DNA of 64,000 bases from an uncultured Bifidobacteriales bacterium (GCA_964603925.1 CAZRWX010000001.1:5489-69488); one strand, 5' to 3'; positions 2,851 to 20,804 are shown, numbered from the stretch's first letter. The notes: generated from the letters alone by a model not told the origin. Numbers and translations are program-made.

Positions 2851-4682
2851 ACGGTATTATACTGGCAGCATATCTGCAATTTAAAGAAAATAAGCAAAAG
2901 AAATTTCCTATTCAAAGGATGGTTACCACCATAGGCAGGGGCATGAGCAACGACCTGAGCCTGGAAGACCCTACTATATCCAGTTTACATGCCAATATCG
3001 TACAAAAAGAAAACACTCACGCAATTTTTGATATGGGCAGTCGTAATGGCTTAAGCGTCAATGGTAAAAAATGTAAAGAATGTGTTTTAAATCATGGTGA
3101 TGAAATACAGTTAGGCAGTATTTACCTGATTTATTATAACCAGCGGGTTCTCGATGACGGCGATACAGGCCTGGACAATCTGCTTACATCCATTCAAACT
3201 ATGGATTTCAACTCATCTAAAAAGGAGATCCTTCAAACTGTTACCAGCCTTAAAGAAAAAGAGGTCGGTTTTCAGTTCCTGCTCTCAGGTATAGCCGCCA
3301 TGGGTAAAAGTCTGAATATTAATGAACTTATCAATAACCTGCTGGGCCAGGTGTTGGACTTACCCGACATGGGCAATGCCTGGGTGTTGGAACATACCGG
3401 TAAAAAGTGGAATCTTATGGCGGGTAAAAAGGAGAGCGTGGATCTTCAGCCTCAGCTCTTTACCTATCTGAATACCCATGAGAAATGCACCTTCCAGTAT
3501 CAGGACAAAGCCTACGCTTCCTTCCCAATTAAGATACATGTAAATGGCTCCCTGGGGGCAGTACTTACAAACACTCAACCACGTAAATTCCCGTCTCAGC
3601 TCATTATGGGACTTTGCTTTTATGCAGCTCAGATGTGGCAAAACCTTATTCTTCAGGAAAAAACCACTAAAAAAATTGTTAAAGGGCTGGTGGACGAAAA
3701 TACCGCTCTCAAAAAAAGGCTTGAAGAGCACACCGATTGGGTGCCCATGGATGATGTCACGAAAAAAATTGCCCTGCAGGTGGAAAAAATGGCCCCATCA
3801 GAGCTGCCAATAATGATAACGGGGGAAACAGGAGTAGGCAAATCTTATGTAGCCCGCCATATACATAACATGAGTACCCGCAGGGGCAAAGCTTTCATCA
3901 CCATAGATTGCGCTACTATCCCAAAAGATCTTATTGAAAGTGAGCTCTTCGGCCATGAAAAAGGTGCCTTTACCAGCGCCGACAAGCTGAAAGCCGGAAA
4001 AGCCGAAGCCGCCCAGGGGGGCACCCTTTTTTTAGATGAAGTTGGAGAGCTCAAGCCGGATACTCAAGCCAAGCTACTGCGCCTGGTACAAGACAACGAA
4101 TATGAGAGAATAGGAGGCACAGAGCTGCTGGCTGCCAATGTGCGCATCCTGGCTGCCACCAACCGTGATTTGGAGACCCAGGTTAAATCCGGCAAATTCC
4201 GCAAAGACTTGTACTATCGGTTGTGTGTGCTCCATATACATTTACCCCCCTTAAAAGAGCGGAAAAATGAAATTGAATACCTGGCCAACTTCTTTATAAA
4301 ACGCGCAGCGCCTCAGGAGGATATCGTCATCCCTGGAGATGTCATGAAAATTATGAGATCCCACCCCTGGCCCGGCAATATACGTCAGCTGGAGAACGCG
4401 GTAAAAAGGGCCTGCGTATTAAATTCTGAGGGGGAAATAACCCTGGAGCACCTGGGGCTGAAGGAAGGTTATGAGGATGAAACCCGCAGCGGCAATACTG
4501 ACATCACCACCCTTAGCCTGGCAGATATAAGAGAGCGCAGCGAAAAGAGCGCCCTAAAAGAAATTCTCGCCAAAAACAAAGGCCACCTTTCAAAAACATC
4601 AACCCAGCTGGGTATCGCCCGCAATACTTTAACCGCTCTGCTTAAAAAATACAACCTGGACAAAGACACCATTACCGGCTGA
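2847..4682 (+). CDS. Sigma-54-dependent transcriptional activator with N-terminal FHA domain (FHA-GAF-like-AAA+-HTH)
   Basis: FHA signature (TIGRGMSNDLSLEDPTISSLHANI...GSRNGLSVNGKK). AAA+ sigma-54 interaction domain (Walker A GETGVGKS; ESELFGHEKGAFTSA, a GAFTGA variant; Walker B LFLDEVGEL). C-terminal Fis-type HTH (TSTQLGIARNTLTALLKKYNL). Confidence 0.9.
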   Translation: MNGIILAAYLQFKENKQKKFPIQRMVTTIGRGMSNDLSLEDPTISSLHANIVQKENTHAIFDMGSRNGLSVNGKKCKECVLNHGDEIQLGSIYLIYYNQRVLDDGDTGLDNLLTSIQTMDFNSSKKEILQTVTSLKEKEVGFQFLLSGIAAMGKSLNINELINNLLGQVLDLPDMGNAWVLEHTGKKWNLMAGKKESVDLQPQLFTYLNTHEKCTFQYQDKAYASFPIKIHVNGSLGAVLTNTQPRKFPSQLIMGLCFYAAQMWQNLILQEKTTKKIVKGLVDENTALKKRLEEHTDWVPMDDVTKKIALQVEKMAPSELPIMITGETGVGKSYVARHIHNMSTRRGKAFITIDCATIPKDLIESELFGHEKGAFTSADKLKAGKAEAAQGGTLFLDEVGELKPDTQAKLLRLVQDNEYERIGGTELLAANVRILAATNRDLETQVKSGKFRKDLYYRLCVLHIHLPPLKERKNEIEYLANFFIKRAAPQEDIVIPGDVMKIMRSHPWPGNIRQLENAVKRACVLNSEGEITLEHLGLKEGYEDETRSGNTDITTLSLADIRERSEKSALKEILAKNKGHLSKTSTQLGIARNTLTALLKKYNLDKDTITG

Positions 4683-4686
4683 CAAT

Positions 4687-6396
4687 ATGAGCATACAAAA
4701 GAATATTATTTACCTGACCCGGGTGCTTGTAGTTATGGGTCTTTTGTTTGTGCCGGGGTGCAACCTGTTTCAGAATATTGAGCCGGATACTGTGAACCCC
4801 GTAATACTTAAATTCACTGATGAACGCACCGAGATGCCCCTGACCGGCCGCAGCCTTATAATAAACAATACCACGGTAATTACACACGACAGCCTTGGCA
4901 CAGCCACCCTGGGCAAGTTCACCGCCGGGGCCCATACTTTTGTAATACAGGATAATGGCATATACACCGATTCGGCCTACTTCCCAAATACTGTCACCAT
5001 TAATATATCCGCCAAGTTCACCAGTTATACCATCAGGATGAAAAGGAACTATAGAACTTGGGGCTATGTGGCTTTCAATACAATTTACCCCCCACTCACT
5101 GTACCCAACACCCAGGAGCTTAATTTAAAAGGCAAAAAGGAGCTGGACCTGCTGCGGCCGGTATATTACTGGTACCTGAATGATTCTCTGATTGGCAAAA
5201 CCTACAACCCCGAACACAAGATATACCTGGCTGATTCACTGTCTCAATTTATATACAAAGTGGTTGTACTGACAGATGAAGTGGAAGCCGATAATCATGA
5301 CACCATAGGTACAGCCACCAGCAGCCTGCTGCCTAATCAATACCCCAGAAATAACAGGCAGCCAACTCTCTCTTTTTCAGGGTTTCAGCAACCGGGCTGC
5401 CAGCCCGGAAAGTTAGAGTTTGTAGTTCATGACCCCGATGGAGATCTTACTAACAATGCTATGGGAAGCCCTGGAATGGAAATCAGCATACCCGGGCGTC
5501 CCGGGCAGTGGAAGGTTAAATTCACCTATGTATCAAATGACTCCATAACGGGTTATTTTTCTCTGGGTTCACTGGATTACTCCCAGGACAGCACTGTGCA
5601 TATATATGCAGCCTATTTTGAAAAATATGACAGTTTGAGTAATTTTAAAGCCCGACGTTACCAGACAGACACTGTCTTTTCAATCAACCCCTATACTGTG
5701 CCCAATCTCGCTATCAGCGGGCTCAGTGGCACGCCATACTATTGGGGGGACACTATAAGGACTGTGCTCGAATCTAACACCCAGCTCATTTATAATAACC
5801 CAGGTACCGCGCGTCGTTTTTTCATGTACAACGACACCTCTATTATCAATCTAAGCCCCATGATACTTAGAAGTGAATCTTTAACTATGACTATACCGGA
5901 TAATTTTGATTTCCACAAGCTGACAATAACAGGCCGCGACACAAACACTCTTTATACCCGTTTTACCGCTTTGACTACATGCAACGATACAATAGAAGCC
6001 ATTGACAGTATCACCTTTATTAATCCGGGTATTGTCACTGACCAGGGGGATACAGTCAATATCCCCCTTATTAACACACCTGACACAGTAAGCGACACCC
6101 TGGGGTTCTCCATAACTAACAACCCCAACAAGGCCTTTCACTCATTTGTATTAAACTGGGGTGATGGTTCACTTGAAGAGATCCTGCCCAGCGACGGCAG
6201 CAACTACTACCGCCCAGGGCATAATTTCATTGTTAAAGACATTAAAAGGTATTATGAAACTATTGAAGGCAGCAGTTTTATATTTATACATGGCAAGTTG
6301 CGTATTACCGCCAGGAGAGACGTCGGCTACGCGGGTATTCAATCTCTGCTCACAGTTTCAGTAAAGTATCAGGTCCCCGATACTACTGGTAATTAG
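4687..6396 (+). CDS. Predicted lipoprotein with PKD-like domain, function unknown
   Basis: Signal peptide plus lipobox LLFVPGC. A C-terminal FVLNWGDGS motif resembles the PKD-domain WDFGDGS signature. Starts 5 bp after the activator gene's stop (4682), so probably in the same operon. Confidence 0.6.
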   Translation: MSIQKNIIYLTRVLVVMGLLFVPGCNLFQNIEPDTVNPVILKFTDERTEMPLTGRSLIINNTTVITHDSLGTATLGKFTAGAHTFVIQDNGIYTDSAYFPNTVTINISAKFTSYTIRMKRNYRTWGYVAFNTIYPPLTVPNTQELNLKGKKELDLLRPVYYWYLNDSLIGKTYNPEHKIYLADSLSQFIYKVVVLTDEVEADNHDTIGTATSSLLPNQYPRNNRQPTLSFSGFQQPGCQPGKLEFVVHDPDGDLTNNAMGSPGMEISIPGRPGQWKVKFTYVSNDSITGYFSLGSLDYSQDSTVHIYAAYFEKYDSLSNFKARRYQTDTVFSINPYTVPNLAISGLSGTPYYWGDTIRTVLESNTQLIYNNPGTARRFFMYNDTSIINLSPMILRSESLTMTIPDNFDFHKLTITGRDTNTLYTRFTALTTCNDTIEAIDSITFINPGIVTDQGDTVNIPLINTPDTVSDTLGFSITNNPNKAFHSFVLNWGDGSLEEILPSDGSNYYRPGHNFIVKDIKRYYETIEGSSFIFIHGKLRITARRDVGYAGIQSLLTVSVKYQVPDTTGN

Positions 6397-6523: not shown

Positions 6524-9112
6524 CTACAAACCACCAGCTCCATACTGCTGATAAACCCGCTCCAAATCTGCAAGACAAAAATGGCCGCCCTTTTTAATTG
6601 CCAGGCCCGCCTTTAAAAGAGTTACAGCCAGGTCATTGAAGCCTTTACCATGCCAGTACCCACCCAGATACTGCAGGGCTTTAATTTTAAGAAGATTGTA
6701 GTCGGCGGGAATAAAAGTCTGTTTTTCCTCAAAAGCCAGTAGTTTGGTATACCAGATGCAAGCCTCTTTGGGGCTTCCCGCCTTCTCTTCCAGCTGGGCT
6801 TGTAGAAGCACTGTCTCTGGATGAACCTCCACCTGGGTCAGGCCAATTTTCAAGGCATTGCGCGCCACGTCATATTGCCCCAGCTTCATAAGGGCATGGG
6901 CCGTTTTGGCCGGCCCTATCTGTATTATATGTGGATCAGTATTTGTTTTTTCGGCTAATTCCACTGCCTGCATAAAGTATTCAACAGCTTGGGCATTGTC
7001 ATCCAGATCCAGATAAGCATGCGCCAGCGTATACAATGTAACAGGCGTTATATTATTATCAGCCTTAATTTGCTGTTCCAGGAGATCACGGTTTCGAATT
7101 TGCTTTTTGCGCGAAACTTCTTCATTATGATAACCCGTATGGATAATTTTAATATCCGTATATTCTACAGGTATCCCCGCCCTCTCCAGGGAAGGCAGCA
7201 CCTGCTCATGAACCGGAGACTCAAAACGTACATCAGGACGATTGGGGAACAACCTTACCTGATTAAAAAGTGAGCCGGTATTACCCCCATCAGCACTGTT
7301 CTGGACCAAAAAACCATAAGCCTTTAGGCCTTTTACAGACTTCCAGTCAGGACCAAAGTCCCGGGCTAAAAGAGCGGGTATGGCTACTTTATCCTTCTCA
7401 AGCAAAATGTCATCGGCATCAAGCCACATTATCCAGTTCCTCCGGGCGCTATCCAGGCTCACATTACGGGCCTGGCTGAAGTCATTTTGCCAGGGGGAGT
7501 TTACCACTCTGGCCCCAAAGTGCCGGGCCACCTGGATAGTATTGTCTGCCGACCCGGTATCTACTACTATAATTTCATCAAAAAGCCCCTGGGCACTTTG
7601 CAGACATTTAGTCAAGTGCTCCTCCTCGTCTTTAGCGATAATGCAAAGACTTAAACCTGGGGTAAGCGCCCCTGTGCCGGCGGGGCCCGCTTCAGGGGTA
7701 CTTGCAGCAGCCTGGTAAGTGTTTGCTTCACCGGGCCACGGCATGTCGGGGAACTGCGACCTGGCCTGGGAAAGGTATTGATTTACCGCGGCAGTATCTC
7801 CTGACAGCCTGATAGCATGAATAACTTTCTGGTAAATGTGGGGATTGCGTGCGGGATTAATTTTTAAAGCCTCCCGGTAGGCTCCCAGAGCCTCATCACC
7901 CCGGCCTAATGCCTCAAAGCATTCGCCCAGACCCGTCCATAACTCCACTACCTCTTTGTAGTTGACTTTCATTTTTTCAAACCATTCCACCGCTTCAGCA
8001 AAATTACCCTGGGCAATGAGGATGCGTGTAAGGAAGTGATAGGCATAAATTTTAACGGTGTCATATTGATTGGCTGTGCTGGAGTGTCGCAGGGGCATCT
8101 CTATAACCTGGACGAATATATCCCGGGCTTCGTTTAGCCTGCCCTGCTCCTGCAGGGCCTCTGCTTTATGAAAAAGGGGCTCTAACTTATTTTTGTCCAG
8201 TTCCCGGGCTTTGTCAAGCCATTCAATAGAATCCTGATAACGTTTAAGTTTTAAATAACCCAAACCTATATATATTGGAATAGTGGCATATACATCGCGA
8301 TTAATTTCCAGCAAATCGGGTATGGCAAAAGCCTTTTTATAGGCGCTGATACCTTTTTCCCATTGTTCCAGAATAAAGTAAGAATCCCCGCAGCTCATGG
8401 TAAAGGTTGGGTCTTTGCCAAGAAGGTCCCCCTCCTCAGAGGCAACCAGCTCCAAATTGCGTCTGGCCTTTTTCTTTTTGGCTTCATCATTCTCATAACC
8501 GGTATGGTGTATGATAGTTTCAACATATTTACAGTGAACGCCCAGCCGCGCGGCGCTGTATACAAACTGCTCATGCACCTTGCGCTCAAAACGGATATCG
8601 GGATGATTGGGGAACATGCGCACCTGCATAAAGCGCGCCCCCCAGGCCTGACCAGCCTGGGTATTAATTACCTGAAAACCAAAAATTCGATCCAAAGGGG
8701 CGGTCTTAAGTTTTAAAAACGCTGCTACCTGATCGGGGGGAATACGGTCATCAGCGTCCAGCCACAGCACCCAGGAGCAATTGGCCTTCTCCAGACTCTG
8801 ATTGCGCGCCAGACTGAAGTCACCCTGCCATTGGGTTTGGAACCAGGTAACATCTAGACCATTGAGGATATCCTGGGTACCATCTACAGAACCGGTATCA
8901 TTGATTATAATTTCGTCCGCAAACGGCAGAAAAGACTGAACCGCCCCTTCAATATTTTTAGCTTCATCTTTAACAATCATTATAATGGAAAGAGTATTGG
9001 GCGGATAGGGGAGTTTAAAGGGGCTTTTTATGCGGCCAAAAGCCTTGTTAATGTCCTTGGGCAGGCCGTCCCTGCCAGCCATGGAGGATATTTTAGAGCT
9101 GTACTTTTTCAC
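6524..9112 (-). CDS. Dual-GT2 glycosyltransferase with TPR repeats (GT2-TPR-linker-GT2-TPR), SunS-like GT-A domains
   Basis: Two GT2 domains: SIIMIVKDEAKNIEG...IIINDTGSVDGT...QWQGDFSLARN...WVLWLDADD and LSLCIIAKDEEEHL...IIVVDTGSADNT...PWQNDFSQARN...WIMWLDADD. TPR-like helical repeats sit between and after them. A Pro/Gly/Ala-rich linker (ASTPEAGPAGTGALTPG) separates the halves. Confidence 0.85.
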   Translation of the reverse strand: MKKYSSKISSMAGRDGLPKDINKAFGRIKSPFKLPYPPNTLSIIMIVKDEAKNIEGAVQSFLPFADEIIINDTGSVDGTQDILNGLDVTWFQTQWQGDFSLARNQSLEKANCSWVLWLDADDRIPPDQVAAFLKLKTAPLDRIFGFQVINTQAGQAWGARFMQVRMFPNHPDIRFERKVHEQFVYSAARLGVHCKYVETIIHHTGYENDEAKKKKARRNLELVASEEGDLLGKDPTFTMSCGDSYFILEQWEKGISAYKKAFAIPDLLEINRDVYATIPIYIGLGYLKLKRYQDSIEWLDKARELDKNKLEPLFHKAEALQEQGRLNEARDIFVQVIEMPLRHSSTANQYDTVKIYAYHFLTRILIAQGNFAEAVEWFEKMKVNYKEVVELWTGLGECFEALGRGDEALGAYREALKINPARNPHIYQKVIHAIRLSGDTAAVNQYLSQARSQFPDMPWPGEANTYQAAASTPEAGPAGTGALTPGLSLCIIAKDEEEHLTKCLQSAQGLFDEIIVVDTGSADNTIQVARHFGARVVNSPWQNDFSQARNVSLDSARRNWIMWLDADDILLEKDKVAIPALLARDFGPDWKSVKGLKAYGFLVQNSADGGNTGSLFNQVRLFPNRPDVRFESPVHEQVLPSLERAGIPVEYTDIKIIHTGYHNEEVSRKKQIRNRDLLEQQIKADNNITPVTLYTLAHAYLDLDDNAQAVEYFMQAVELAEKTNTDPHIIQIGPAKTAHALMKLGQYDVARNALKIGLTQVEVHPETVLLQAQLEEKAGSPKEACIWYTKLLAFEEKQTFIPADYNLLKIKALQYLGGYWHGKGFNDLAVTLLKAGLAIKKGGHFCLADLERVYQQYGAGGL

Positions 9113-11820
9113 CCCCCCACTCCCCCATTGGATATTTTAGCCTTTAGCTGGGCCAGTAACTTACCCAAATCTGCTGAAGGCTGTTTTATATTCTGCAGGT
9201 CCCCGTAAGCCTTTGCCAAATCCCCATAGTCATTCATCCATTCAGTAAAGTATACCAAAAGTGTAGGGTCCCCCGAGTATGTATGCAGAGCCTCAATATA
9301 GATTTTGTAGGCTTCCTCTGAACCAGGCATAAGGGCATTAAGGCATTTACCCCTGAAGGCCTCTATAACACCTGAGGACATATGTATGTCCGGATTATTT
9401 TCAAAGGTCTCCAGCACCTCGGAATAACGCTCATTTATCATTAATTGTTCCAGATAATTTTCCCACATCACCATGTCATTATTAAAGCGGCTTAAATACA
9501 GCCTGAAATATTTTAGAAGATCTTCAAGGGCCCCCGCCTTCTCAAAAACCTCCACCGGAATTTTATAATCCAGGGGGAAGTTTTGAAGACCTCCGTCAAT
9601 AAGCTCCTTCAGGCACTCCAGAGACGGGTGCCCGGGTTTTAAAGCCCCGCCCCCTGACTGCTCAAGCAGTACCATATACCCCAGCACATTTCTGCGGATA
9701 GTGGTATTATCTGAAGCAAAACGGGATACTTGTATGGGTTTACTTTTTATAATTCTGAATAATTCCAATGCCTTTGGATAATCTTGAGCATCCAGGGCTT
9801 TTTTTGCCAGCCAGTACCAGGAGAAAAGCCCCCCGGGGTTCCAATGCCGGGCTACATCGTACCATTTCTGCGCCTGGGCACTCTCCCCCATTTTATCATA
9901 AGCATTAGCAATAAGCTCAGGAAAAATTTTCACATCTTCCTGCGCTGGTGTCACTTCCAGGTTACTCCAGACCCCCAGTTGCCGTAAAACACCTTTGTAA
10001 AACTCTATTGCCAGTTTATACTCCCCCCGCTGATAATGGCAATTTCCCATTTCCATATTTACCACAGGGTCTTTCGGATGCTCTTTTATCTCATCCTGCA
10101 TAAGAGTAAAATTTCTGTTCAACTTTTTTTCCCTGTTTTCAGACAGCTCATAACCAGTATGGATTATGGTTATATCTACATCCTCCACTGGTATATTTTT
10201 CTCTTTTAGTGAGGTACCCAGCTGTTCATGTACTTTACCCGTAAACTGTATACCCTTATTATTGGGAAACAGACGGATTTGACGAAAAGCCTCCCGCTCT
10301 CCAGTATCTCTGGGACTCTCCACAATAAAACGATAAGCACATGAACTATCTATATTCTGATTTTCCCTGCTATTTGTAATTTGCCTTACCTGCTCCCAGA
10401 ACCCATCAGGGAGCCTGTCATCAGCATCCAGCCATAACAGCCATGGTTTATCAGACTGGTTTAAAGAAAAATTACGCGCTGCGGAAAAATCATTATTCCA
10501 CTGATAGTGGTATGTATTGATATCATTTTCCTTTAAAAAGCTTAATGTTCCATCACTGGAACCGGTATCTACAACTATCAATTCCACCTGTTCGCCTGGA
10601 ATCTGGGCAGCAAGTTCTTTAAGGTTCTGTTCCTCATTTTTCACAATCATACACACAGACAGATTAGGGCCCGAACCACCTTCAGACACCGGCGCCCTGT
10701 GCTCATGACTCTGTTTGTGCAGATCCTGTTTCGGGATCTTCTGCTCCGGCAGTTTCTGCTCCGGCAGTTTCTGCTCCGGCAGTTTCTGCTCCGGCAGTTT
10801 CTGCTCCGGCAGTTTCTGCCGCACATGCCTCAATACTTCCCGTGCGCCATCGAGAATAGAATCCCAGTCTGTGGGAATTGTCCATGGCGGTATGGGAAGT
10901 GAAAGCGCACTTTCCAAACACTTAGCCGCATTGCGGAAATTACCCAGAACAAACTCAACCTTGCCGAACTCAAACATGTACTGAGGATTATGTGACCCTA
11001 AATCCAGATTTTTCTTAAAGAAAGTTACGGCTTCAACAGTATGCCCGGCCAGGGCCTTACACTGACCAAGGTAGATGTGGCTGGCAAGATAGACATCCTC
11101 CTGCTGATCACGGGAACCCGAAGTCTGGATTATACGCTCATAGAGATCATTGGCCCGGTCAACATCCCCCCTTACCTGAATAGTACGGGCCAGGGAAAAA
11201 AGAATTGAAGTAGGCGCTGCAGGCTGTGCTGCCAGCTGTGTCATTATATTCAAATTTCGTTCAATCTTTGTTGTTAGAGAGGCTTCATCGCTGTAACCTA
11301 CATGGAGTATTTCGCAAGGAGCCTTAATGCCCAATAATGCCTTTTGTTTAATAGAAAGAGACAGGGACTCGTGAATGGGATTAGTAAAAAACAGGCCCAA
11401 TCCGTTAGGTACCAGACGTATCTGGTCAAAACTGTTGGTACTGCCGTCAGCTTGAGGAGACTTAACTGAGAATAAATAAACATGGTGCCTGGACAGCGTG
11501 CTGACATTATTAATAAACCACTGGCTGGTATCCGGCAGGAGCCTGTCATCGGCATCCAGCCACAGCACCCACTGCCCCCCACACTGTTCCAGCCCGAAAT
11601 TACGCGCCTTGGAAAAATTATTATCCCACTGCCGTCTGAAAACCCTGGCCTGACGACCGGTAGCAATATCAATGCTATTATCGGTACTGCCTGTATCTAC
11701 CAGTACCACCTCAGTGGCCACCTTTGCCCGTAAGCTTTCCAGAGAGTCAAAAAAACCTGGAAGCCGGACTTCTTCATCCTTAACGATAATAGTGATTGAA
11801 AGAAGGGGGTTTGGTGTCAA
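9109..11820 (-). CDS. Dual-GT2 glycosyltransferase with TPR repeats and (KLPEQ)n linker, paralogue of the 6524..9112 gene
   Basis: Two GT2 domains: LSITIIVKDEEVRL...VVLVDTGSTDNS...RQWDNNFSKARN...WVLWLDADD and LSVCMIVKNEEQNL...LIVVDTGSSDGT...YQWNNDFSAARN...WLLWLDADD. TPR-like repeats are present. The interdomain linker reads KLPEQKLPEQKLPEQKLPEQKLPEQKIPKQ. Its 4-bp overlap with the downstream gene suggests translational coupling. Confidence 0.85.
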   Translation of the reverse strand: MTPNPLLSITIIVKDEEVRLPGFFDSLESLRAKVATEVVLVDTGSTDNSIDIATGRQARVFRRQWDNNFSKARNFGLEQCGGQWVLWLDADDRLLPDTSQWFINNVSTLSRHHVYLFSVKSPQADGSTNSFDQIRLVPNGLGLFFTNPIHESLSLSIKQKALLGIKAPCEILHVGYSDEASLTTKIERNLNIMTQLAAQPAAPTSILFSLARTIQVRGDVDRANDLYERIIQTSGSRDQQEDVYLASHIYLGQCKALAGHTVEAVTFFKKNLDLGSHNPQYMFEFGKVEFVLGNFRNAAKCLESALSLPIPPWTIPTDWDSILDGAREVLRHVRQKLPEQKLPEQKLPEQKLPEQKLPEQKIPKQDLHKQSHEHRAPVSEGGSGPNLSVCMIVKNEEQNLKELAAQIPGEQVELIVVDTGSSDGTLSFLKENDINTYHYQWNNDFSAARNFSLNQSDKPWLLWLDADDRLPDGFWEQVRQITNSRENQNIDSSCAYRFIVESPRDTGEREAFRQIRLFPNNKGIQFTGKVHEQLGTSLKEKNIPVEDVDITIIHTGYELSENREKKLNRNFTLMQDEIKEHPKDPVVNMEMGNCHYQRGEYKLAIEFYKGVLRQLGVWSNLEVTPAQEDVKIFPELIANAYDKMGESAQAQKWYDVARHWNPGGLFSWYWLAKKALDAQDYPKALELFRIIKSKPIQVSRFASDNTTIRRNVLGYMVLLEQSGGGALKPGHPSLECLKELIDGGLQNFPLDYKIPVEVFEKAGALEDLLKYFRLYLSRFNNDMVMWENYLEQLMINERYSEVLETFENNPDIHMSSGVIEAFRGKCLNALMPGSEEAYKIYIEALHTYSGDPTLLVYFTEWMNDYGDLAKAYGDLQNIKQPSADLGKLLAQLKAKISNGGVGG
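10726..10815 (-). repeat. Five perfect tandem copies of a 15-bp unit (ctgctccggcagttt) plus one degenerate flanking copy, in-frame inside a GT gene
   Basis: Direct reading shows copies at 10741-10755, 10756-10770, 10771-10785, 10786-10800 and 10801-10815. 10726-10740 (ctgtttcgggatctt) is a 10/15 degenerate copy. On the minus strand this encodes (QKLPE)5. Confidence 0.9.
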
Positions 11821-11872
11821 AATTATTTACGAATTATGAAAAACAGGCATTAGCCAGCTATAGAGTCCGTTC

Positions 11873-14800
11873 TCAGCCGTGAAATGAATCTACAATATTC
11901 TTAACCTGTTCCAAACCTGGATCTATCTGCAAAGCAGAACTGAGACGGTCTTTAACCTTGTCCTCCAGACCCAGGATTCTGGCATTTTCCCACAAATTAA
12001 GAAGACTGTCCTGGTCCAGCGGGTTAATTTCCACTGCTGTAGTAAACAGCCTGTGGGCATCCTGATACATGCTTTGCTTATGGGCAATAATACCCAGGCC
12101 ATTATAAGCGGCAAAGCAATCCACCCTTTGCTCTACCAAATCCAGGTATATAAGAATAGCGGGGCTTAATTCCCCTTTGTTTAAATGCTCTTCTGCTTTG
12201 GATAAAAGATCGTTAATATTGTCAATAGATTCAAAATTCTTAATGAGATAGATTTCTTCACCACGCGCCTTTATTTGATGTAGGATTTCGGTGGCCTCCC
12301 GGTTATGGGCGTCTGTACTAAGGAAACGGTCGAGAAAAGGCCGGAATTTATCGATAGATTTCAACTTAAGGGCTACATCAAAAGCATTTATGAGGGCATC
12401 AGTATAAATAGGGTGAATCTCCAGAGCTTTGGAAAAATAATCCCAGGCCCTGTCATAATCTCCCTCATACCAGGCTACCAGCCCCATATTATTAACGGCT
12501 CTGAAATTCTGCGGGTCCTCTTGCAGAATACTTTCAAAAACCTCCCGGGACTTCTGCATCATGCCTTCACGGATAAGGTTTTCTCCGGCAAGGTTTCTCT
12601 CCCGGCTGGATATTATCTTCTCCGGATCCCAGCTACCCTCCCGGGACTCAAGCTTGAGCTGATCGTAATAGTGCTTGATTTCTTGAAAATCTTTGCTTTT
12701 ACCGGGGTAGGAGAAAACCTTTTCCAGAGTACCCAGCACCTCACTTTTATTACCTAAAACTATGCCGGCATCGCAATAATTAATGAGAACATCCTCATCA
12801 AGCAGGTTCAATTCAACGGATTTCTTAAAATGATCCCACGCCATTTTAACATCACCGCATTCAAAGGCAATAATGCCCAGATAGTTATAACAAAAAGCCT
12901 GATGATGTCCGGAGTTCAGGATCTCTTCCAGAAGATCCAACGCTTCACCATAGCGCTTTTCAGAGATAAGATTTTCCACATGTACCCGCCAATGCTCTTC
13001 AGTATCAGCTTTAGGCGCTGTGCGTTTTTTCAGCTCTCCTAAAAAAACCGGATGAAAGGGGAATGTTACCAAAAAAGCATTTAAACATTTAGCTACCTGA
13101 TCCTGCGCACAGGCCTTTTCCAATACATCTATTATATTATTGGCAATATCGGTGTCTGTGGGGTTAAGCTCCAGAGCTTTGCGAAATAGCTGAAGGGCAT
13201 CTGTGTGATTATTATCATGAAAAGAGATTATACCCAGACCATTATATACCTCTGAAATAGAATCATCTAAACCCTGAGCTTTGAGGAATAGATTCCTGGC
13301 TGTATCGAAATCACCCTTTTCGTAGAAATCATTGGCCTCACTGACCAAGTCGCGCACATCAGGTTTTTCTTTTTCCGAAACAATATCGTTCAGAGCCGCA
13401 GCCCCATGGCTCCATTTTTCTTTAAACTTTACCATGTTTTCCTTCATCATCTGCTGCCAGTCTACGCTGTTGCTGCTGAAACTGGCACTGCCGAAATGAA
13501 ATACGAAAGAATCATGAGCAATAAGAAGGCGGTAACCCATATATTTGGCCCGAAGACAATAATCGTCATCCTCAAAATTGCCCTTGCCATAGCGCTCGTC
13601 AAAAAAGCCGATTCTATCAAAGGCCAGCTTGGGAATTAACATGCAAAAACCCGTTATACGCTCAAACTCCATAGCCTTTAAATCATTCTCTTTTTGCCAT
13701 TTGCTCCCAAAATCTTGAATCTCCAATTCAGTATTGAGTTTGGTATCGGGTATAACCTGAGGTCCGCTGATATTATTGGACCGGGGCCCTATTATGCCAA
13801 TCTGTGAACTGCACTCGGACAGGCGCACCATATTCTCCAGCCAGCCAGGCACAACAATGGTGTCGTTATTAAGTACCATGAGGTAATCACCCTGCGCAAC
13901 TTTCAGCCCCTGGTTCCAGCCCTTTGCCACACCCAGATTTTTCTCATTGATAATAACTTTTGCTCCCGGGATAGAATTAAAGTATTCGCCTGTGCCATCG
14001 CTGCTGCCATTATCTACCAATATCAGTTCAAAACTCTGACGGGTATAAGCGGTTATGGATTCAATACATTTTTTTGTAAGGGCCAATTGATTAAAACCAA
14101 GAATAACTATAGAGACACATTTCTTTAGACTATGATCTACATTGCGGTTGTAGCAAACTACCTGTAAACCCTGTTCTGTTCCAGCGCAGCCTTCCTGGGG
14201 CACGCCCGAATAATCTTCCACAGAATCTACAGCAAACCCCGCTTGCCAGCCAGCATTCATCAGAAGTGCTTTTAACTGCTCTGGTTTAATATCTTTACTT
14301 GTTTGCTTACCGTCCGCTGTTTGAGTAACATAAAGCAGTATGGCTTGTTTCAGGCCTGGCATTTTATTGCGCAGTAGCCCAACACGAAGACCTGCCTCCC
14401 CCAACTCGCCGGGAAAAACCCTTATAACCGCCATATCCTGGTCTTCAGCTTTGACCTCTTGCCCGGAAAGACTGAAGACTTTGTCATTTGCTAAATCAAT
14501 AAATACGGGGCTTTCGGCGTTTTTTAAGTGCCGGGCCAAACTCTGGGGAAAACCTGATAAGTCTACCCGGGTAGTACCTTGCTCCGGAACTGTAATTGAT
14601 ACGGCCCCATTATGCTCCAGAACGGGTATATCATCAGACTGGACCTGGTCTGTAAAACAGGTCGTAAATCTTTTTAACAGGCTGGGAATATCAATAGATT
14701 CTTTGAGTTGTTTCTCCAGCCATAACTTATCGCATATAAAACCTAAATTATTGAAACTTTGACAGGTATCTGAGTCTGTAGTGAGAGGAATGCGTGTACA

Positions 14801-16072
14801 CTGAATATGGTTGTCAGGAATGAACCGGTGGTAAGACTGCTGAAAGAAAGCCGAGATACTAACCCCCGCAGGTACAAAAAGAAGATTTTCCTGCTTTATA
14901 AAACTTATGGCCATCCCCAAGCCGTCTATCAAAGACTGCTCGGGTGATAAATCTACTTTTAAGCCCTTGAAATCGCCAACACCTGACGCCGCAAGACCTC
15001 TTTGAAAATTGATAATAAAAACCTGCCCGGCCTCTCGAGCAGGTATGGAAGCCAGAGTTTGCTGTAAAAGATTTTTTGCGTCCTTTAACTCTGCTCCTAC
15101 ATAAACAACCCACCCCAGAGAGACTTTTTTTAAATTTTTACTTTCAGCATTTTGCAAAGACAATTCCTCGATAATATTTTTTGAAGGCTGAAACCAGTTT
15201 ATGCCCCACATAACCTCAGGGCCTGGTATTTTATCATGGTTACCATAAAACTTAAATAATTTGCGGTAAAGGTTATCTGTTGATTCCTGCACCAAAGCAT
15301 TTACTTTTTGATTTGGTTCTGTTTTAAAACTTTTTTGGCCCTCATGATGAATAAAGGTATCTGTAGCCACAACCAGTTCATACCCCCGCTGCCGTAAACG
15401 CCAGCTTAATTCCAGGTCATCGTTACCAAGAAACAGGTTCTCATCCATACCCTCCAGAGAATCAAATACCCTTTTGCTTACCATCAAACAAAAACCGATG
15501 AGTAGTTTGGTAATCAGACCCTTGCCTTTATTTGCTGTCGTTAAAGACTGGGAAAGAGACTCAAATGTAACCCCCATGCCCAGACGTTCTGAGGTATGTA
15601 ATTCGTATTTTTGCAAACCTGCTACATAATCAGAAACCGGCCCAACGGCTCCCACTTTTGGGCTATCAAAAAATGCAGCCATTTTGGGAAGCCACCCCTG
15701 GGTGACAATAGTGTCAGGGTTAAGAAAAACCAAATACTGCCCATGGGCCCCTTTTGCTCCCAGGTTACATGCACGGGCAAAACCCAGATTTTCAGGGCTT
15801 AAGACAGATTTAAGCCCTTTTCCAGATTGTAAGGATTGTAAAAAAGCTGGAGTACCATCACTTGAATTATTATCTACAACAATAACTTCTAAACCCATGT
15901 TATCATCACTGACAGATTTTAAGCACAGCTTTAATGTTTGCAGACAATTGTAAGAAACAACAATAATGGAATATTTAACGGCCACAGCCCCTCTCCGACA
16001 GAGTTTAGTATCACCAAAGCTTTTAATTAAAGTAGAACTTTCCGGCCCGGAACTGCAAACTCCCTGTTCCAT
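11873..16072 (-). CDS. Giant multi-domain glycosyltransferase (GT2 - unknown middle domain - GT2 - C-terminal TPR array), 1399 aa
   Basis: N-terminal GT2 (KYSIIVVSYNCLQTL...VIVVDNNSSDGT...YLVFLNPDTIV). Second GT2 (VSIVILGFNQLALTKKCIESI...LILVDNGSSDGT...YLMVLNNDTIVVPGW). About 500 aa of C-terminal TPR repeats (e.g. AWDHFKKSVELNL, AWDYFSKALEIHP). The true start may lie downstream of the first Met. Confidence 0.85.
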   Translation of the reverse strand: MEQGVCSSGPESSTLIKSFGDTKLCRRGAVAVKYSIIVVSYNCLQTLKLCLKSVSDDNMGLEVIVVDNNSSDGTPAFLQSLQSGKGLKSVLSPENLGFARACNLGAKGAHGQYLVFLNPDTIVTQGWLPKMAAFFDSPKVGAVGPVSDYVAGLQKYELHTSERLGMGVTFESLSQSLTTANKGKGLITKLLIGFCLMVSKRVFDSLEGMDENLFLGNDDLELSWRLRQRGYELVVATDTFIHHEGQKSFKTEPNQKVNALVQESTDNLYRKLFKFYGNHDKIPGPEVMWGINWFQPSKNIIEELSLQNAESKNLKKVSLGWVVYVGAELKDAKNLLQQTLASIPAREAGQVFIINFQRGLAASGVGDFKGLKVDLSPEQSLIDGLGMAISFIKQENLLFVPAGVSISAFFQQSYHRFIPDNHIQCTRIPLTTDSDTCQSFNNLGFICDKLWLEKQLKESIDIPSLLKRFTTCFTDQVQSDDIPVLEHNGAVSITVPEQGTTRVDLSGFPQSLARHLKNAESPVFIDLANDKVFSLSGQEVKAEDQDMAVIRVFPGELGEAGLRVGLLRNKMPGLKQAILLYVTQTADGKQTSKDIKPEQLKALLMNAGWQAGFAVDSVEDYSGVPQEGCAGTEQGLQVVCYNRNVDHSLKKCVSIVILGFNQLALTKKCIESITAYTRQSFELILVDNGSSDGTGEYFNSIPGAKVIINEKNLGVAKGWNQGLKVAQGDYLMVLNNDTIVVPGWLENMVRLSECSSQIGIIGPRSNNISGPQVIPDTKLNTELEIQDFGSKWQKENDLKAMEFERITGFCMLIPKLAFDRIGFFDERYGKGNFEDDDYCLRAKYMGYRLLIAHDSFVFHFGSASFSSNSVDWQQMMKENMVKFKEKWSHGAAALNDIVSEKEKPDVRDLVSEANDFYEKGDFDTARNLFLKAQGLDDSISEVYNGLGIISFHDNNHTDALQLFRKALELNPTDTDIANNIIDVLEKACAQDQVAKCLNAFLVTFPFHPVFLGELKKRTAPKADTEEHWRVHVENLISEKRYGEALDLLEEILNSGHHQAFCYNYLGIIAFECGDVKMAWDHFKKSVELNLLDEDVLINYCDAGIVLGNKSEVLGTLEKVFSYPGKSKDFQEIKHYYDQLKLESREGSWDPEKIISSRERNLAGENLIREGMMQKSREVFESILQEDPQNFRAVNNMGLVAWYEGDYDRAWDYFSKALEIHPIYTDALINAFDVALKLKSIDKFRPFLDRFLSTDAHNREATEILHQIKARGEEIYLIKNFESIDNINDLLSKAEEHLNKGELSPAILIYLDLVEQRVDCFAAYNGLGIIAHKQSMYQDAHRLFTTAVEINPLDQDSLLNLWENARILGLEDKVKDRLSSALQIDPGLEQVKNIVDSFHG

Positions 16073-16114
16073 ATTTAAGTTTCCCTATATACTAAAAAGC
16101 TATAGAAAGCACAT

Positions 16115-16477
16115 TCAGCTGTTAAAAAGCTGTTCTTTCAGCAGATAAATTATTTTTTCCGCTGTTTCTTTGTCTATGCCGCTACTGGAGGAACCGATAT
16201 TGGACTGCCTGTTCTGATTGGCTAGCGCACGCCTGGCACCAGCGATAGAGTAGCCATCCTCTTTCAACATGGAGTATATCTTCTTAAGTCTTATTATTTG
16301 ATCAGTACCATAACGACGCTGTTTACCCATAGTACGGGGAGTATCAAGATATTGAGGGAATTCTTTTTCCCAATACCTGATAGTGTGGGTGGGGATGCCA
16401 ATTATTTTAGATACATCACCTATACTCACTAAAGCGTCATCTTGCTGTTGAATTTCTACGGCACCTTGCATTATCAT
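16115..16477 (-). CDS. MerR-family HTH transcriptional regulator (short form)
   Basis: IGDVSKIIGIPTHTIRYWEKEFPQYLDTPRTMGKQRRYGTDQIIRLKKIYSMLKEDGYSIAGARRAL matches the MerR HTH pattern (IgevAk..Gvs..TlRyYE..gLl.p.R...g.R.Y...d...l..I..l...G.sl.ei). It lies 42 bp upstream of, and on the same strand as, the 1399-aa GT gene. Confidence 0.75.
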   Translation of the reverse strand: MIMQGAVEIQQQDDALVSIGDVSKIIGIPTHTIRYWEKEFPQYLDTPRTMGKQRRYGTDQIIRLKKIYSMLKEDGYSIAGARRALANQNRQSNIGSSSSGIDKETAEKIIYLLKEQLFNS

Positions 16478-16706
16478 TGCGCCTCCATGGGTTAAATCAT
16501 AAATATTTAGAGCAAATATGATACCATCAATATTTATCCATTTTTTGTTAAAATTCCTAACTTTTTACTTTAATTTTGCCCTTTTTGAGGCAACATTTTC
16601 CTAAACAGAAGTGATGAAAGGAATTTTTTTCCACAAAATATTGAGTAGAGCGGCTTTCAAGTTAGCTGATGCATATTCTATGTAAATGTTATTATCTTTT
16701 CCTTTT

Positions 16707-16765: not shown

Positions 16766-19700
16766 ATGAAGTTTGGTGATTTTTTTAAACCTCAATGGAA
16801 GCAGAGTGACCCCCGTATCAGAGCAGAAGCCATAAAAAGCCTTGATGAGGAGTTTCACCTTGATGATCTCACAACTATAGCAATTTCAGATGAACTGTTA
16901 GACAATAGCAGATTAGCTCTCAAAAAGATTAACAGTGAAACATCGCTAATTAAAATAGCTGAAAATGCCCAGGAAACGGCCATAAGGGAGAGTGCTCAAA
17001 AAAAGCTTAGTGAAATATGGACTGGTTTTATCAAATCCAATGATAATGCAAATGAGGCCATTTCATTAATTAAAAAAGTAAAAGATCTTAAATGTCTGGA
17101 GGATATAGCTCTAAACAGCAAGTCGCTGGATGTCCGTAAAGCCGGTTTGGATATGCTTGTACATGCCTCCTCAATTTTAAAAGTAGCCCTTAACGAAAAG
17201 GATGAAGAGCTGGCTTTTAAAGCCTTAAGCAAGATTTCCAAACCTGCTCAATTGGAGATTGTCAGCAAAAAAGCCCTTAACAAGTCCCTAAGACAGAAGG
17301 CTAAGGAGTTATTCGAAAGCCAGACCAATGCAGGCGAGTCTTTATCAGAGGAGCAGGTGCGATCTGCACAATTGGAGCTTCTCTGCCGCACAGTTGAGTC
17401 TCTTGAACAACCAACTAATTGGGAGGATGCCGCCCGCAAATTAAACGAAGCTAAAACAACCTGGGGCTCCCTGGTATCAGAGGCACAGGCAATTCCTGAA
17501 GCACTCAGCCAGCGTTTTGAAATAGCTCTGGAGCAATATAAATCTGCCGAGCTAAAGCATTTAGAAAAAGAGCAAATGCGTCAAAAAGACCGCGATTATC
17601 AGCTTAAGCTGGGGGAGAAGAGGTCCATCTGCAACAAAATAGATGAACTTCTAATTATCAAAAATAAAAGCGAACGTAATGAGCAAATCAGCACTCTGAT
17701 AGACAGGTGGCGTGCTCTAGGTGATCTTTCCGAGGAGGACGCTCAACTTTTAGATGCGCGTTTTAAAAAAGCCACCGAGACCTTTCAAGGGCAGCTCAAG
17801 GAGTTGTCTCAAAAAGAGACAAAAACAGATAATGTTCAAGCTCTTCTTGAGGATGCAAAACAGCTGGCAGAGCGACCGGTATCAGATGGCTGCCAAACCC
17901 AGATAAAAGACTTAAAGGCGGCCTTAAACCGTTTGCCCAGTGAAAACCAGACACCAGAAGTTACTCAAATTGAGGGCCTGATTTCTCAGATTGAAGATAC
18001 TATTCAAAAACATGATCAGCAGATAGTTGACGAGGAAGCTGCCAATTTTATTAAGCTGAAAGAAGTCATACCTCAAATTGAAACATTAGTTGACAATCCA
18101 GATCTCCTGGAATCCGAGAGGAAATTCCGAGATCTGATTCATCAATGGCGGGCTCTTCATCCCTTTAATCATCTCAATTCAGAGTCCCAGGCAGAATACG
18201 CTTCCCTCACTCAGGCTTTTGACAGCAATTGCGAAAGATACCGGGAAGCCCAGGAGTGGCTCAGGTGGTCTAATCTCAAGAAGAAGCAGGATATCTGCCA
18301 GCAGCTGGAGACATTCCTGGAGGCATCCGAGCCCAGAGAGCTCTATAAAAAGTTAAGAGAAATGCAATCAGAGTGGCGACAGGTAGGGCCGGTAAGCTGG
18401 GAGGCAAGCAAAGAAATATGGGATCAATATCGTAAACTAACAGACGAAATTTATGAAAAATGTCAGAGTTTCTTTAGCGAACTGGAGGAGGAGCGGAAAG
18501 CAAATCTTGAAGCTAAAAAAGAGCTTTGTACCCTGGTAGAAACCCAGATAGAGTCCACAAACTGGAAGGAATCAACCGAAATAATAAAAAAAGCCCAGGC
18601 ACAATGGAAGGACACTGGCCCTGTACCCAAAGAGCAGTCTGACTCAATTTGGGAGCAGTTCCGCAACTTGTGTGACAAATATTTTGACAAAAGGAAGCTA
18701 TACTTCGAAGAGCTGGAGTCTCAGAAGGACAGCAATTTTGGGAAGAAACTCGAACTTTGCAAATTAGTAGAAGACAATCAAGATTCAACTAATTGGCGTG
18801 AAACTGCTGAAATATTTAAAAAAGCCCAGGAGGACTGGAAACAAATAGGCCCTGTTCCTAAAGAAAGAATGGAGGAGATATGGGACCGTTTTCGCAAGGC
18901 GTGTGACCATTTTTTTAATGCCCGGGATATGTATTTTAAAACTCTGGATGCCAATAAAGACGAAAATCTTGCACAAAAAGAGGCTTTAATTGAACAGATA
19001 CTTAACCTGGAAAATATTGAGTCTGATCAGGAGAAATTCGATCTGATTAAAAAGGCCCAGGCTGAATGGAAGCTGATTGGCCCCGTAGAAAAAGATAAAG
19101 CTGACCTGATATGGGAAAGGTTTCGTAAACCAATAGATGATTTTTTTGATAAACGCAAATTAATAAATAAAGAGGAAAACCAGCATAGAGAGGAAAATCT
19201 GGGAAAAAAGGAGGAGCTGTGCCAGCAGGCAGAAACCCTCAGCGAGTCCAAAGATTGGAAAAAAACCTCTGAAGAGCTTAAAAAACTACAGGCATCCTGG
19301 AAACAAATAGGCCCAGCGGCCCGTGATAAGGATAAGGCTATCTGGATGCGTTTTCGCTCGGCATGCGATGCTTTCTTCAGCAATATGAAAGACCATTACC
19401 GTCAGTTGGATGAAAAAAGATCACTAAATTTAAATGTCAAAGAAGATCTCTGTTTTCAAGCAGAACGGTTAGCTGGTTTTGTAGAATTTAAAGACAATGA
19501 CACCGATTCAACTCAAGAAAATGGCAAAGACTGGCCTCTAGCCGCTCAAAGTGTTAAAGAGCTTCAAAAAAAATGGAAGGAAGTTGGGCCGGTCCCCAGG
19601 TCTCAGAGTGATGAGCTCTGGCAGCGCTTTCGTATGGCCTGTGACTTTATTTTCGATCAAATCCGGGCCGTAGATTCTGAAGAGTCTGTGAATGAAGAAG

Positions 19701-19912
19701 CCAATCTGGCAGCCCGAAGGGAGATCTGCGAAGAGGCAGACCGTATTTCCCACCAGGTGCATACTGATGCACAGCTTACTAAAATCAAAAACCTGCAAAA
19801 GGAATGGCGCAATCACGGTCCCATACCAAAAGAGGAATTCAAAGAGCTCTGGCTTAGTTTTAAAAAGTCCTGTGATATTGTGCTTGCGGGCGACGAGAGA
19901 CTAGGGGAATAA
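16766..19912 (+). CDS. DUF349 repeat protein, 1048 aa, highly charged, at least 9 tandem ~68-aa helical repeats
   Basis: Recurrent units of the form (N/D)W(K/R)E..E(I/L)(I/F)KKAQ..WK.(I/T)GPVPKE....IW.(R/Q)FR..CD.FF..R, e.g. NWKESTEIIKKAQAQWKDTGPVPKEQSDSIWEQFRNLCDKYFDKR. The N-terminus MKFGDFFKPQWKQSDPRIR also matches my recollection of the DUF349 (PF03993) family. Confidence 0.8.
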   Translation: MKFGDFFKPQWKQSDPRIRAEAIKSLDEEFHLDDLTTIAISDELLDNSRLALKKINSETSLIKIAENAQETAIRESAQKKLSEIWTGFIKSNDNANEAISLIKKVKDLKCLEDIALNSKSLDVRKAGLDMLVHASSILKVALNEKDEELAFKALSKISKPAQLEIVSKKALNKSLRQKAKELFESQTNAGESLSEEQVRSAQLELLCRTVESLEQPTNWEDAARKLNEAKTTWGSLVSEAQAIPEALSQRFEIALEQYKSAELKHLEKEQMRQKDRDYQLKLGEKRSICNKIDELLIIKNKSERNEQISTLIDRWRALGDLSEEDAQLLDARFKKATETFQGQLKELSQKETKTDNVQALLEDAKQLAERPVSDGCQTQIKDLKAALNRLPSENQTPEVTQIEGLISQIEDTIQKHDQQIVDEEAANFIKLKEVIPQIETLVDNPDLLESERKFRDLIHQWRALHPFNHLNSESQAEYASLTQAFDSNCERYREAQEWLRWSNLKKKQDICQQLETFLEASEPRELYKKLREMQSEWRQVGPVSWEASKEIWDQYRKLTDEIYEKCQSFFSELEEERKANLEAKKELCTLVETQIESTNWKESTEIIKKAQAQWKDTGPVPKEQSDSIWEQFRNLCDKYFDKRKLYFEELESQKDSNFGKKLELCKLVEDNQDSTNWRETAEIFKKAQEDWKQIGPVPKERMEEIWDRFRKACDHFFNARDMYFKTLDANKDENLAQKEALIEQILNLENIESDQEKFDLIKKAQAEWKLIGPVEKDKADLIWERFRKPIDDFFDKRKLINKEENQHREENLGKKEELCQQAETLSESKDWKKTSEELKKLQASWKQIGPAARDKDKAIWMRFRSACDAFFSNMKDHYRQLDEKRSLNLNVKEDLCFQAERLAGFVEFKDNDTDSTQENGKDWPLAAQSVKELQKKWKEVGPVPRSQSDELWQRFRMACDFIFDQIRAVDSEESVNEEANLAARREICEEADRISHQVHTDAQLTKIKNLQKEWRNHGPIPKEEFKELWLSFKKSCDIVLAGDERLGE

Positions 19913-20720: not shown

Positions 20721-20739
20721 GAAATTATACCTGTGTTTC

Positions 20740-20780
20740 TCTTTTAAAAAATAAAGGCACAGTTAAAATCAACTGTGCCT
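20740..20780 (-). terminator. Rho-independent terminator-like hairpin downstream of pal (minus strand)
   Basis: Stem ggcacagtt(20756-20764) / aactgtgcc(20771-20779) with a 6-nt loop. On the minus strand it is followed by a T-tract (plus-strand aaaaaataaa at 20745-20754). Confidence 0.5.
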
Positions 20781-20804
20781 GAAAATTTAATAAAAAACTA
20801 AAAC

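Follow-up and report, generated by a model that had tools for sequence, protein, structure and literature searches.

GmaR (Lmo0688) of Listeria monocytogenes is a bifunctional protein that acts as a flagellin O-linked N-acetylglucosamine (GlcNAc) transferase and as an anti-repressor of MogR. It consists of a glycosyltransferase (GT) domain of ~180 amino acids (aa) followed by tetratricopeptide repeat (TPR), linker, and anti-repressor domains, and capture of flagellin by its TPRs has been proposed (PMC9638930). TPR domains are also the flagellin-binding determinant in FlmG and Maf-1 (bioRxiv 10.1101/2023.12.03.569772), and the combination of a family 2 glycosyltransferase (GT2) domain with TPRs was used as a criterion to predict flagellin glycosyltransferases in Clostridium (PMC13317340). 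Enzymes of the SunS type modify glycocins; all known glycocin clusters are defined by a precursor peptide, a C39-peptidase ATP-binding cassette (ABC) transporter (PCAT), and thiol-disulfide oxidoreductases (PMC12457901). Work on flagellin glycosylation has dealt almost exclusively with Proteobacteria, Campylobacterota, and Bacillota. As far as our literature search shows, flagellar glycosylation has not been described in Fibrobacterota, a phylum of poorly studied, mostly uncultured polymer degraders. In this study, we analyzed a stretch of 64,000 nucleotides (GCA_964603925.1, CAZRWX010000001.1:5489-69488; hereafter the window, with positions counted from its first nucleotide) that was deposited as DNA of an uncultured Bifidobacteriales bacterium and belongs to a Fibrobacterota bacterium. 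It contains an operon of one MerR-like gene and three large glycosyltransferase genes, which is probably a protein O-glycosylation cassette of the flagellar regulon. The functional statements made below rest on sequence, structure prediction, and comparative context.

Results

Two-module enzymes of the GmaR/SunS branch

The four genes are co-oriented on the minus strand and form one unit behind a sigma-54 promoter. The first encodes a MerR-family regulator (16115-16477; 120 aa) and is followed by the gene of a soluble, multi-domain glycosyltransferase of 1399 aa (11873-16072) and by the genes of two enzymes of 903 aa (9109-11820, TTG start) and 862 aa (6524-9112, GTG start), each of which comprises two modules of a GmaR/SunS-like GT-A domain and TPRs. 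The intergenic gaps are 42 and 52 bp, and the 903- and 862-aa genes overlap by 4 bp (GTGA). These minus-strand open reading frames (ORFs) were recovered with the coordinates, gaps, and overlap given in the initial annotation of the stretch.

In each of the three large proteins, Pfam detected two Glycos_transf_2 stretches and many TPR families. The GT-A domains of the 903-aa protein are located at residues 1-200 (11221-11820) and ~385-590 (10051-10668). In the 862-aa protein, the first GT-A domain (residues ~38-207; 8492-9001) is followed by a TPR region (residues ~209-453; 7754-8488), and the second (residues ~485-660; 7133-7660) is followed by another (residues ~664-856; 6545-7123). The AlphaFold model of this protein (predicted local distance difference test, pLDDT, 87.3) has two GT-A and TPR modules, with helical repeats behind each GT-A domain and a disordered linker at residues 462-484. 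The four modules of the two proteins are mutually 25-34% identical. The motifs KxEE, DTGSxD, WxxDFSxARN, WLDADD, and HxGY occur once per GT-A domain in all four domains and are absent from the 1399-aa protein. One motif set is therefore common to the four domains, as had been noted before, except that WQGDFS in the first domain of the 862-aa protein departs from the form W.N(D/N)FS given earlier. All four domains retain the motifs for binding UDP-sugar and metal. Between its two modules, the 903-aa protein has a linker with a perfect tandem repeat (15 bp x 5.4 copies, 100% matches; 10739-10819) that encodes (KLPEQ)5; because the copies are perfectly identical, a recent expansion or a linker of variable length is suggested.

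A sequence search of the PDB identified GmaR (22ao/22ap) as the best relative of all four GT-A domains, followed by SunS (7msp/7msn) and ThuS (7msk). The scores for GmaR and SunS were 94 and 78 bits for domain 2 of the 862-aa protein, 91 and 65 bits for domain 2 of the 903-aa protein, 78 and 37 bits for its domain 1, and 72 and 58 bits for domain 1 of the 862-aa protein. The domains share 28-33% identity with GmaR over ~190-208 residues, which is on par with the identity between the modules themselves. In a Foldseek search of the PDB, the 862-aa model best matched SunS (7msn/7msp) and then ThuS (7msk), with an E value of 1e-14 and target TM scores of 0.57-0.74; SunS and ThuS are thus the best structural matches for a full module and second to GmaR by sequence. 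The top NCBIfam family of the 903- and 862-aa proteins was TIGR04195 (SunS), with 107.2 and 145.6 bits against an equivalog cutoff of 350 bits. Since GmaR is the best relative in the PDB and the TIGR04195 scores fall below the cutoff, the four signature domains are assigned to the GmaR/SunS branch of GT2, whose enzymes modify proteins, and not to the SunS equivalog. A SunS-type core had been assigned to these domains in the initial annotation. Their similarity to SunS-like enzymes was recovered in both profile and structure searches; assignment to the SunS type itself did not hold, as GmaR is nearer for all four.

The 1399-aa protein contains a classical GT2 domain (residues ~33-290; 15203-15976), a degenerate GT-A-like domain without a DxD motif (residues ~319-487; 14612-15118), an alpha/beta subdomain without family assignment (residues ~510-642; 14147-14545), a second classical GT2 domain (residues ~650-880; 13433-14125), and a TPR region of ~500 aa (residues ~890-1399; 11876-13405). 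The two classical GT2 domains and the TPRs had been recognized earlier, and the middle part of ~350 aa, previously left unassigned, now proves to hold the degenerate GT-A-like fold. The operon consequently encodes six apparently intact GT domains, the number counted before, and one further degenerate domain. The best NCBIfam matches of the 1399-aa GT2 domains were MftF-like, EpsD, and rhamnosyltransferase families, all below the cutoff, and their donor motifs are NPD and NND; both look like transferases of the ordinary, non-processive kind. The three large proteins are soluble (maximum 19-residue hydropathy <=1.47), and neither a transmembrane segment nor a QxxRW (Q/RxxRW) motif was found in any of the four operon proteins. 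A processive or membrane-bound polysaccharide synthase was rejected for lack of a transmembrane segment, of QxxRW, and of an exporter in the window or the related loci.

Conservation of the cassette and its flagellar neighbors

Full-length homologs of the 862-aa protein (35-59% identity) were found in metagenome-assembled genomes (MAGs) of Fibrobacterota, including Fibrobacteria, Fibrobacterales, Fibromonadales, and Chitinivibrionales, and the 1399-aa protein has orthologs with a similarly wide distribution there. Homologs of the MerR-like protein (42-75% identity) were restricted to records of the Fibrobacterota and Raymondbacteria types. Wherever the context was examined, the MerR gene has a giant GT2-TPR gene and a GmaR/SunS-like GT gene directly downstream; these three genes therefore constitute a cassette that is conserved across Fibrobacterota. 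The 903-aa paralog is present only in a subset of genomes, and in two genomes one larger protein (1237-1259 aa) replaces the GmaR-like enzymes. In a sub-lineage, a 333-379-aa protein without a Pfam family is encoded between the giant GT and the two-module GT (related loci L002/L012, at 8965-9993; L010; L014; and L083), in the position of the 903-aa paralog in the window.

Comparison of the synteny across genomes revealed flagellar neighbors in a subset of these loci. For example, the gene order in a Fibrobacteres MAG (L002/L012) is FlgK-FlgL-flagellin-FliW-CsrA-MerR-GT1371-342-aa protein-GT885-FlgM-FliK-FlgD-FlgE-MotA-MotB-FliL-FliM-FliN, and two Chitinivibrionales MAGs (L044 and L053) show the order FlgK-FlgL-flagellin-FliW-CsrA-MerR-GT. 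In ten further Fibrobacteria loci (L001/L009, L005, L006, L007, L008, L011, L019, L022, L026, and L042), a flgM-like gene (~100 aa) directly follows the last GT gene, and its products are homologous to FlgM of the flagellar cluster in L012. A sigma-28-type promoter, TTAAAGT-N14-(G/C)(T/C)CGATA(A/T), precedes every flgM-like gene in the ten loci and in L012 (12644-12790); sigma-28 promoters are how flgM is expressed in other bacteria. This signature could serve for mapping the FliA regulon in Fibrobacterota. Outside the phylum, six of ~44 loci have a flagellin gene no more than 10 kb from the homologous GT; they come from Hungatella, Deferribacteres, Desulfobacterales, two Desulfacinum, and Desulfosoma (L040, L045, L046, L057, L059, and L072); in the Hungatella MAG (L040), tandem GT2-TPR genes lie beside flagellin genes.

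The window itself contains a flagellar rod gene of the FlgF/G type (48873-49574, minus strand). Since this ORF passes TIGR03506 (FlgE/F/G; 135.6 bits against a cutoff of 70.25), the organism possesses flagellar genes. The rod gene stands alone: it lies directly downstream of murG, away from any other flagellar gene. A phylogenomic study concluded that the ancestor of the phylum had flagella and that only Fibrobacteraceae lost them (PMC4704652); consistent with this loss, neither the best 120 protein matches nor the best 80 genome loci included a record from the genus Fibrobacter.

Two side observations concern the related loci. The 5' leaders of the flagellin genes in L044 (~7580-7620) and L053 (~3800-3850) have in common CAAGGACGCT...GGTCAGGATGAC with repeated GGA motifs; these repeats look like CsrA binding sites and would fit the adjacent fliW-csrA genes. 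In other phyla, giant multi-GT2/TPR homologs reach 4216 aa in L034 (Thermodesulfovibrionales), 2971 aa in L037, and 2592 aa in L049, and among the results of the protein search were forms of 1157-2439 aa with a fused methyltransferase, GT4, radical SAM, or sulfotransferase domain. Multi-GT2/TPR proteins form a large, unstudied class of giant soluble glycosyltransferases.

A promoter architecture common to the cassette and flagellin genes

A sigma-54 -24/-12 element, TGGTATCATATTTGCT, was identified at 16511-16526 on the minus strand, ending 33 nt upstream of the MerR start codon. It has GG at -24, GC at -12, and the exact spacing by which a sigma-54 promoter was defined here (TGGCAC-N5-TTGCW), and nowhere else in the window does either strand match the consensus. 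Such a single match is not significant on its own, as 38 of 100 shuffled sequences also reach it; the weight lies in its position and in its conservation across otherwise unalignable intergenic regions. When the 269 nt upstream of MerR were compared in 18 distinct loci, TTGG(C/T)A(C/T)-N5-TTGCTTT was present in all 18, at 44-84 nt before the start codon. The more distant loci L084 and L085 also carry the element, giving a total of 20/20 loci. The flagellin genes of L012, L044, and L053 likewise have canonical sigma-54 promoters.

Two copies of a palindrome precede the element in the window on the minus strand: GGAAAAAAATTCC (16632-16620), 106 nt upstream of the -24 element, and GGAAAATGTTGCC (16601-16589), 75 nt upstream. 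The palindrome GG(A/C/T)AA-N3-TT(G/T)CC, scored as the pattern GGNAA-N3-TTNCC with at least 7 of its 8 fixed bases, was found 57-110 nt upstream of the -24 element in 16 of 18 MerR promoters and in all three flagellin promoters (L012, L044, and L053). The background of this pattern in the window is 86 matches per 128 kb. In L012, L044, and L053, perfect copies are almost unique and are sited at the MerR and flagellin promoters; upstream of the sigma-54 promoter of the hook operon in L012, the palindrome had no match. The palindromes are candidate sites for an enhancer-binding protein, or a candidate operator of the MerR-like protein. Because both promoter types pair a sigma-54 element with the same upstream palindrome, we infer that one DNA-binding factor may act at these sigma-54 promoters to switch on flagellin and the MerR-GT cassette together.

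The operon had been described as MerR-led. The MerR gene does come first, but the promoter is of the sigma-54 type and not the sigma-70 type typical of MerR control. For the latter (19-20-bp spacer), a generic promoter scan was uninformative, and the comparison of loci gave the sigma-54 promoter instead. No sigma-28 promoter was found in the window. The gene of a sigma-54 activator with an FHA domain (2847-4682) lies within the operon that converges on the cassette; in principle, the cassette's sigma-54 promoter could be a target of this activator, but the activator gene is not conserved beside the cassette in relatives.

The MerR-like protein

The MerR gene product matched the Pfam families PF13411 (MerR_1; 66.8 bits, cutoff 21.6) and PF00376 (34.4 bits, cutoff 28.2). 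It is a minimal protein composed of an N-terminal winged helix-turn-helix of the MerR type, as detected by Pfam, and a short helix. No C-terminal effector domain was found, and all effector-specific NCBIfam equivalogs scored far below their cutoffs. The protein contains no Cys and one His. In the public annotation it starts two codons later and has 118 aa. A literature search for MerR regulators in flagellar clusters yielded no relevant match.

Genes flanking the operon

A plus-strand operon (386-6396) converges on the 3' end of the GT operon. It encodes a PEGA-domain Ser/Thr kinase, a protein of 239 aa that weakly matches TssQ-like lipoproteins, the FHA-sigma54 enhancer-binding protein mentioned above, and a 569-aa protein without assigned function. 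On the other side, a 1048-aa protein with eight DUF349 repeats (16766-19912, plus strand) is encoded divergently from the MerR gene; this divergent DUF349-MerR arrangement recurs in L004 (43% identity). Both flanks agree with their first description. A complete Tol-Pal cluster of CpoB, Pal, TolB, TolA, probable TolR, and TolQ (19917-24521, minus strand) follows, and a partial operon for an Rnf complex is located at 59231-63295 (plus strand). These are ordinary housekeeping genes that confirm a diderm anaerobe. As had been noted before, Pfam found no Wzx/Wzy, ABC exporter, or nucleotide-sugar gene within ~8 kb of the operon, and exporter-type families (ABC transporter, Wzx, Wzy) were absent from all ORFs of at least 150 aa in the 64 kb. 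The only sugar-related genes in the window are those of a phosphomannose isomerase, 8 kb from the operon, and a WbaP-type priming transferase (44082-45581), 28 kb away and outside the conserved cassette. Rfam and tRNA scans of the window returned nothing.

Discussion

The evidence presented here suggests, with a probability of roughly 0.6, that the operon belongs to the flagellar regulon and serves the O-glycosylation of protein in the cytoplasm, with flagellin as the most probable substrate. The initial annotation proposed the glycosylation of an unknown protein or peptide. Protein glycosylation remains the best reading, and the target narrows to flagellin because of the synteny and the common promoter architecture in relatives. 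In this process, flagellin that is unfolded or held by a chaperone would be bound by the TPR arrays in the cytoplasm, ahead of export, and the four GmaR-like domains would put the first sugar on Ser/Thr residues, whether on a single flagellin, on several, or at different sites. A short glycan may then be built on this sugar by the classical GT2 domains of the 1399-aa protein. The donors would be housekeeping nucleotide sugars, as the operon has no linked genes for sugar synthesis. The operon would be switched on together with flagellin, and the small MerR-like protein may be a dedicated regulator or partner of the cassette.

Several observations weigh against a flagellar role. In the window, no flagellin, flgM, or other flagellar gene lies next to the cassette, the nearest being the rod gene 32 kb away, and tblastn did not find a flgM-like gene anywhere in the 64 kb. 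Around the Fibromonadales orthologs and most homologs from other phyla, flagellar genes are absent to a distance of 10 kb, and L083 has only a gene with a FapA domain, 5 kb away. L014 possesses the cassette, yet the label of this MAG, taken as given, is Fibrobacteraceae, the family reported to lack flagella. The flgM-like proteins themselves scored only 17.6-23.4 bits with the Pfam FlgM model (cutoff 25) in four of the five scanned, and the fifth gave no match. In addition, typical flagellar glycosylation islands carry sugar-biosynthesis genes, none of which is linked to the cassette here, and sigma-54 promoters also govern many functions other than flagella.

These points leave room for substrates other than flagellin. 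The cassette might glycosylate one or more other proteins, such as a type IV pilin, a surface or adhesion protein, or cytoplasmic targets, by the same TPR-guided mechanism, with the flagellar linkage reflecting co-regulation or history. The window locus and many homologous loci lack flagellar neighbors, as this would predict; the GmaR/SunS branch includes SunS and ThuS, which have other substrates; and four divergent TPR modules could recognize several different substrates. In a cyanobacterium, a TPR-bearing glycosyltransferase homolog (Ogt) is reported to modify a pilin (PMC9306852). However, the only recurrent functional neighbors of the cassette are flagellar, with flagellin, FliW, and CsrA upstream in three genomes and flgM downstream in eleven; the cassette has its upstream palindrome in common specifically with flagellin promoters; and no pilin or other candidate substrate gene is conserved beside the cassette. 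We therefore regard a non-flagellin substrate as unlikely, though as an alternative to be taken seriously. Assembly of a soluble or lipid-linked oligo- or polysaccharide by the three large proteins, in the manner of a cytoplasmic glycan assembly line, would accord with the resemblance of the 1399-aa GT2 domains to exopolysaccharide, rhamnosyl, and teichuronic-acid transferases (all below family cutoffs), with a chondroitin polymerase among the weak PDB matches, and with the WbaP-type gene in the window. That gene is 28 kb off, however, and no membrane segment, QxxRW motif, flippase, polymerase, or exporter was found nearby in the window or the syntenic loci. The four signature domains are nearest to protein-modifying enzymes, and the extensive TPR arrays argue for protein substrates, so that glycan assembly seems very improbable.

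Least probable of all is a glycocin-type pathway for a ribosomally made peptide that is modified post-translationally, in which the SunS-like enzymes would S- or O-glycosylate a small secreted antimicrobial peptide. The top NCBIfam match of the 903- and 862-aa proteins and the top structural matches are indeed glycocin enzymes, but the TIGR04195 scores (107 and 146 bits) are far from the cutoff of 350, and GmaR is closer than SunS for all four domains. The search for a small precursor peptide proposed in the initial annotation was negative: no precursor peptide, C39 transporter (PCAT), or thioredoxin gene was found among the window ORFs of at least 150 aa, the small ORFs of the promoter region, or ~35 related Fibrobacterota loci, and neither the window nor the relatives showed a thiol-disulfide oxidoreductase gene or a conserved precursor ORF. 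A 25-aa ORF with three Cys (16557-16634) was set aside as a candidate; it overlaps the promoter elements, and the upstream regions of the relatives share these elements only. To our knowledge, known glycocins come from Bacillota, and the host of this operon has an outer membrane and a Tol-Pal system. We therefore consider a glycocin origin extremely improbable. GT2-TPR proteins should accordingly not be annotated as SunS-like glycocin enzymes on motif similarity alone.

Within the flagellin reading, the MerR-like protein and the TPR glycosyltransferases could conceivably make up a checkpoint that parallels MogR/GmaR although its components are unrelated, with GGNAA-N3-TTNCC as the MerR operator at the flagellin promoters and at the cassette's own sigma-54 promoter, and with free (substrate-less) TPR modules that bind or release MerR. 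This idea is speculative and, in our estimate, improbable. If it were true, flagellin transcription from sigma-54 promoters would be coupled to the capacity of the cell to glycosylate flagellin; a MerR-family protein would act at sigma-54 promoters, and the system would represent a second, independent flagellar switch controlled by a glycosyltransferase.

If the assignment to flagellin holds, the cassette would extend the GmaR-type mechanism (GT2 with TPRs) to Fibrobacterota. Its build is unusual in that two modules are joined in tandem per enzyme, a 1399-aa extender accompanies them, and a dedicated MerR-like gene is controlled by sigma-54. The regulon signature of a sigma-54 promoter with GGNAA-N3-TTNCC is testable and ties flagellin to its modification genes.

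Comparison with known systems

The TPR-guided recognition of flagellin in the cytoplasm before export that is proposed for the cassette is similar to that of FlmG in Caulobacter and Maf-1 in Shewanella, and Caulobacter flagellins are also sigma-54 dependent. However, FlmG is a GT-B enzyme, a MAF_flag10 domain is present in Maf, the donor of either is a nonulosonic acid, pseudaminic acid (Pse) or legionaminic acid (Leg), and no sequence relationship of the cassette enzymes to FlmG or Maf was detected. SunS and ThuS (7MSN, 7MSP, and 7MSK; TIGR04195) share with the cassette enzymes a GT-A core followed by a helical, TPR-like substrate-binding domain. They differ in that the cassette scores far under the family cutoff, lacks precursor peptide, PCAT, and thioredoxin genes, has a tandem architecture, and resides in a diderm Fibrobacterota host with a flagellar context in relatives. 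The predicted flagellin glycosyltransferases of Clostridium follow the same domain logic of GT2 and TPRs (PMC13317340), but they are single-module proteins of ~450-650 aa in islands with sugar-biosynthesis genes, which the cassette lacks, and the cassette adds a MerR gene and a giant extender GT.

The likeness to GmaR comprises the N-terminal GT-A domain of GT2 (~180-200 aa) followed directly by a TPR domain, an arrangement found after each GT-A domain here by Pfam and in the model; the common motifs KNEE, DTGSTD, WxNDFSxARN, DAD, and HxGY; and the soluble, cytoplasmic nature of the enzyme together with a genetic tie to flagellar genes, which for the cassette is seen in the loci of some relatives but not in the window. 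Unlike GmaR, each of the two paralogs in the cassette has two modules joined in tandem. The cassette is transcribed from a sigma-54 promoter and always has a 1399-aa partner with two classical GT2 domains. Its linked regulator is of the MerR type, and no MogR-like gene was seen. Similarity was detected only within the GT domain, the matched PDB chain being a 204-residue chain of the GT domain alone, and no counterpart of the C-terminal anti-repressor domain by which GmaR binds MogR was recognized. GlcNAc transfer to Ser/Thr of flagellin is known for GmaR; the sugar and the substrate of the cassette are predicted by analogy. In sum, the cassette is most likely a variant of a known system, namely the modification of flagellin by GT2-TPR enzymes, rather than a new peptide-glycosylation system.

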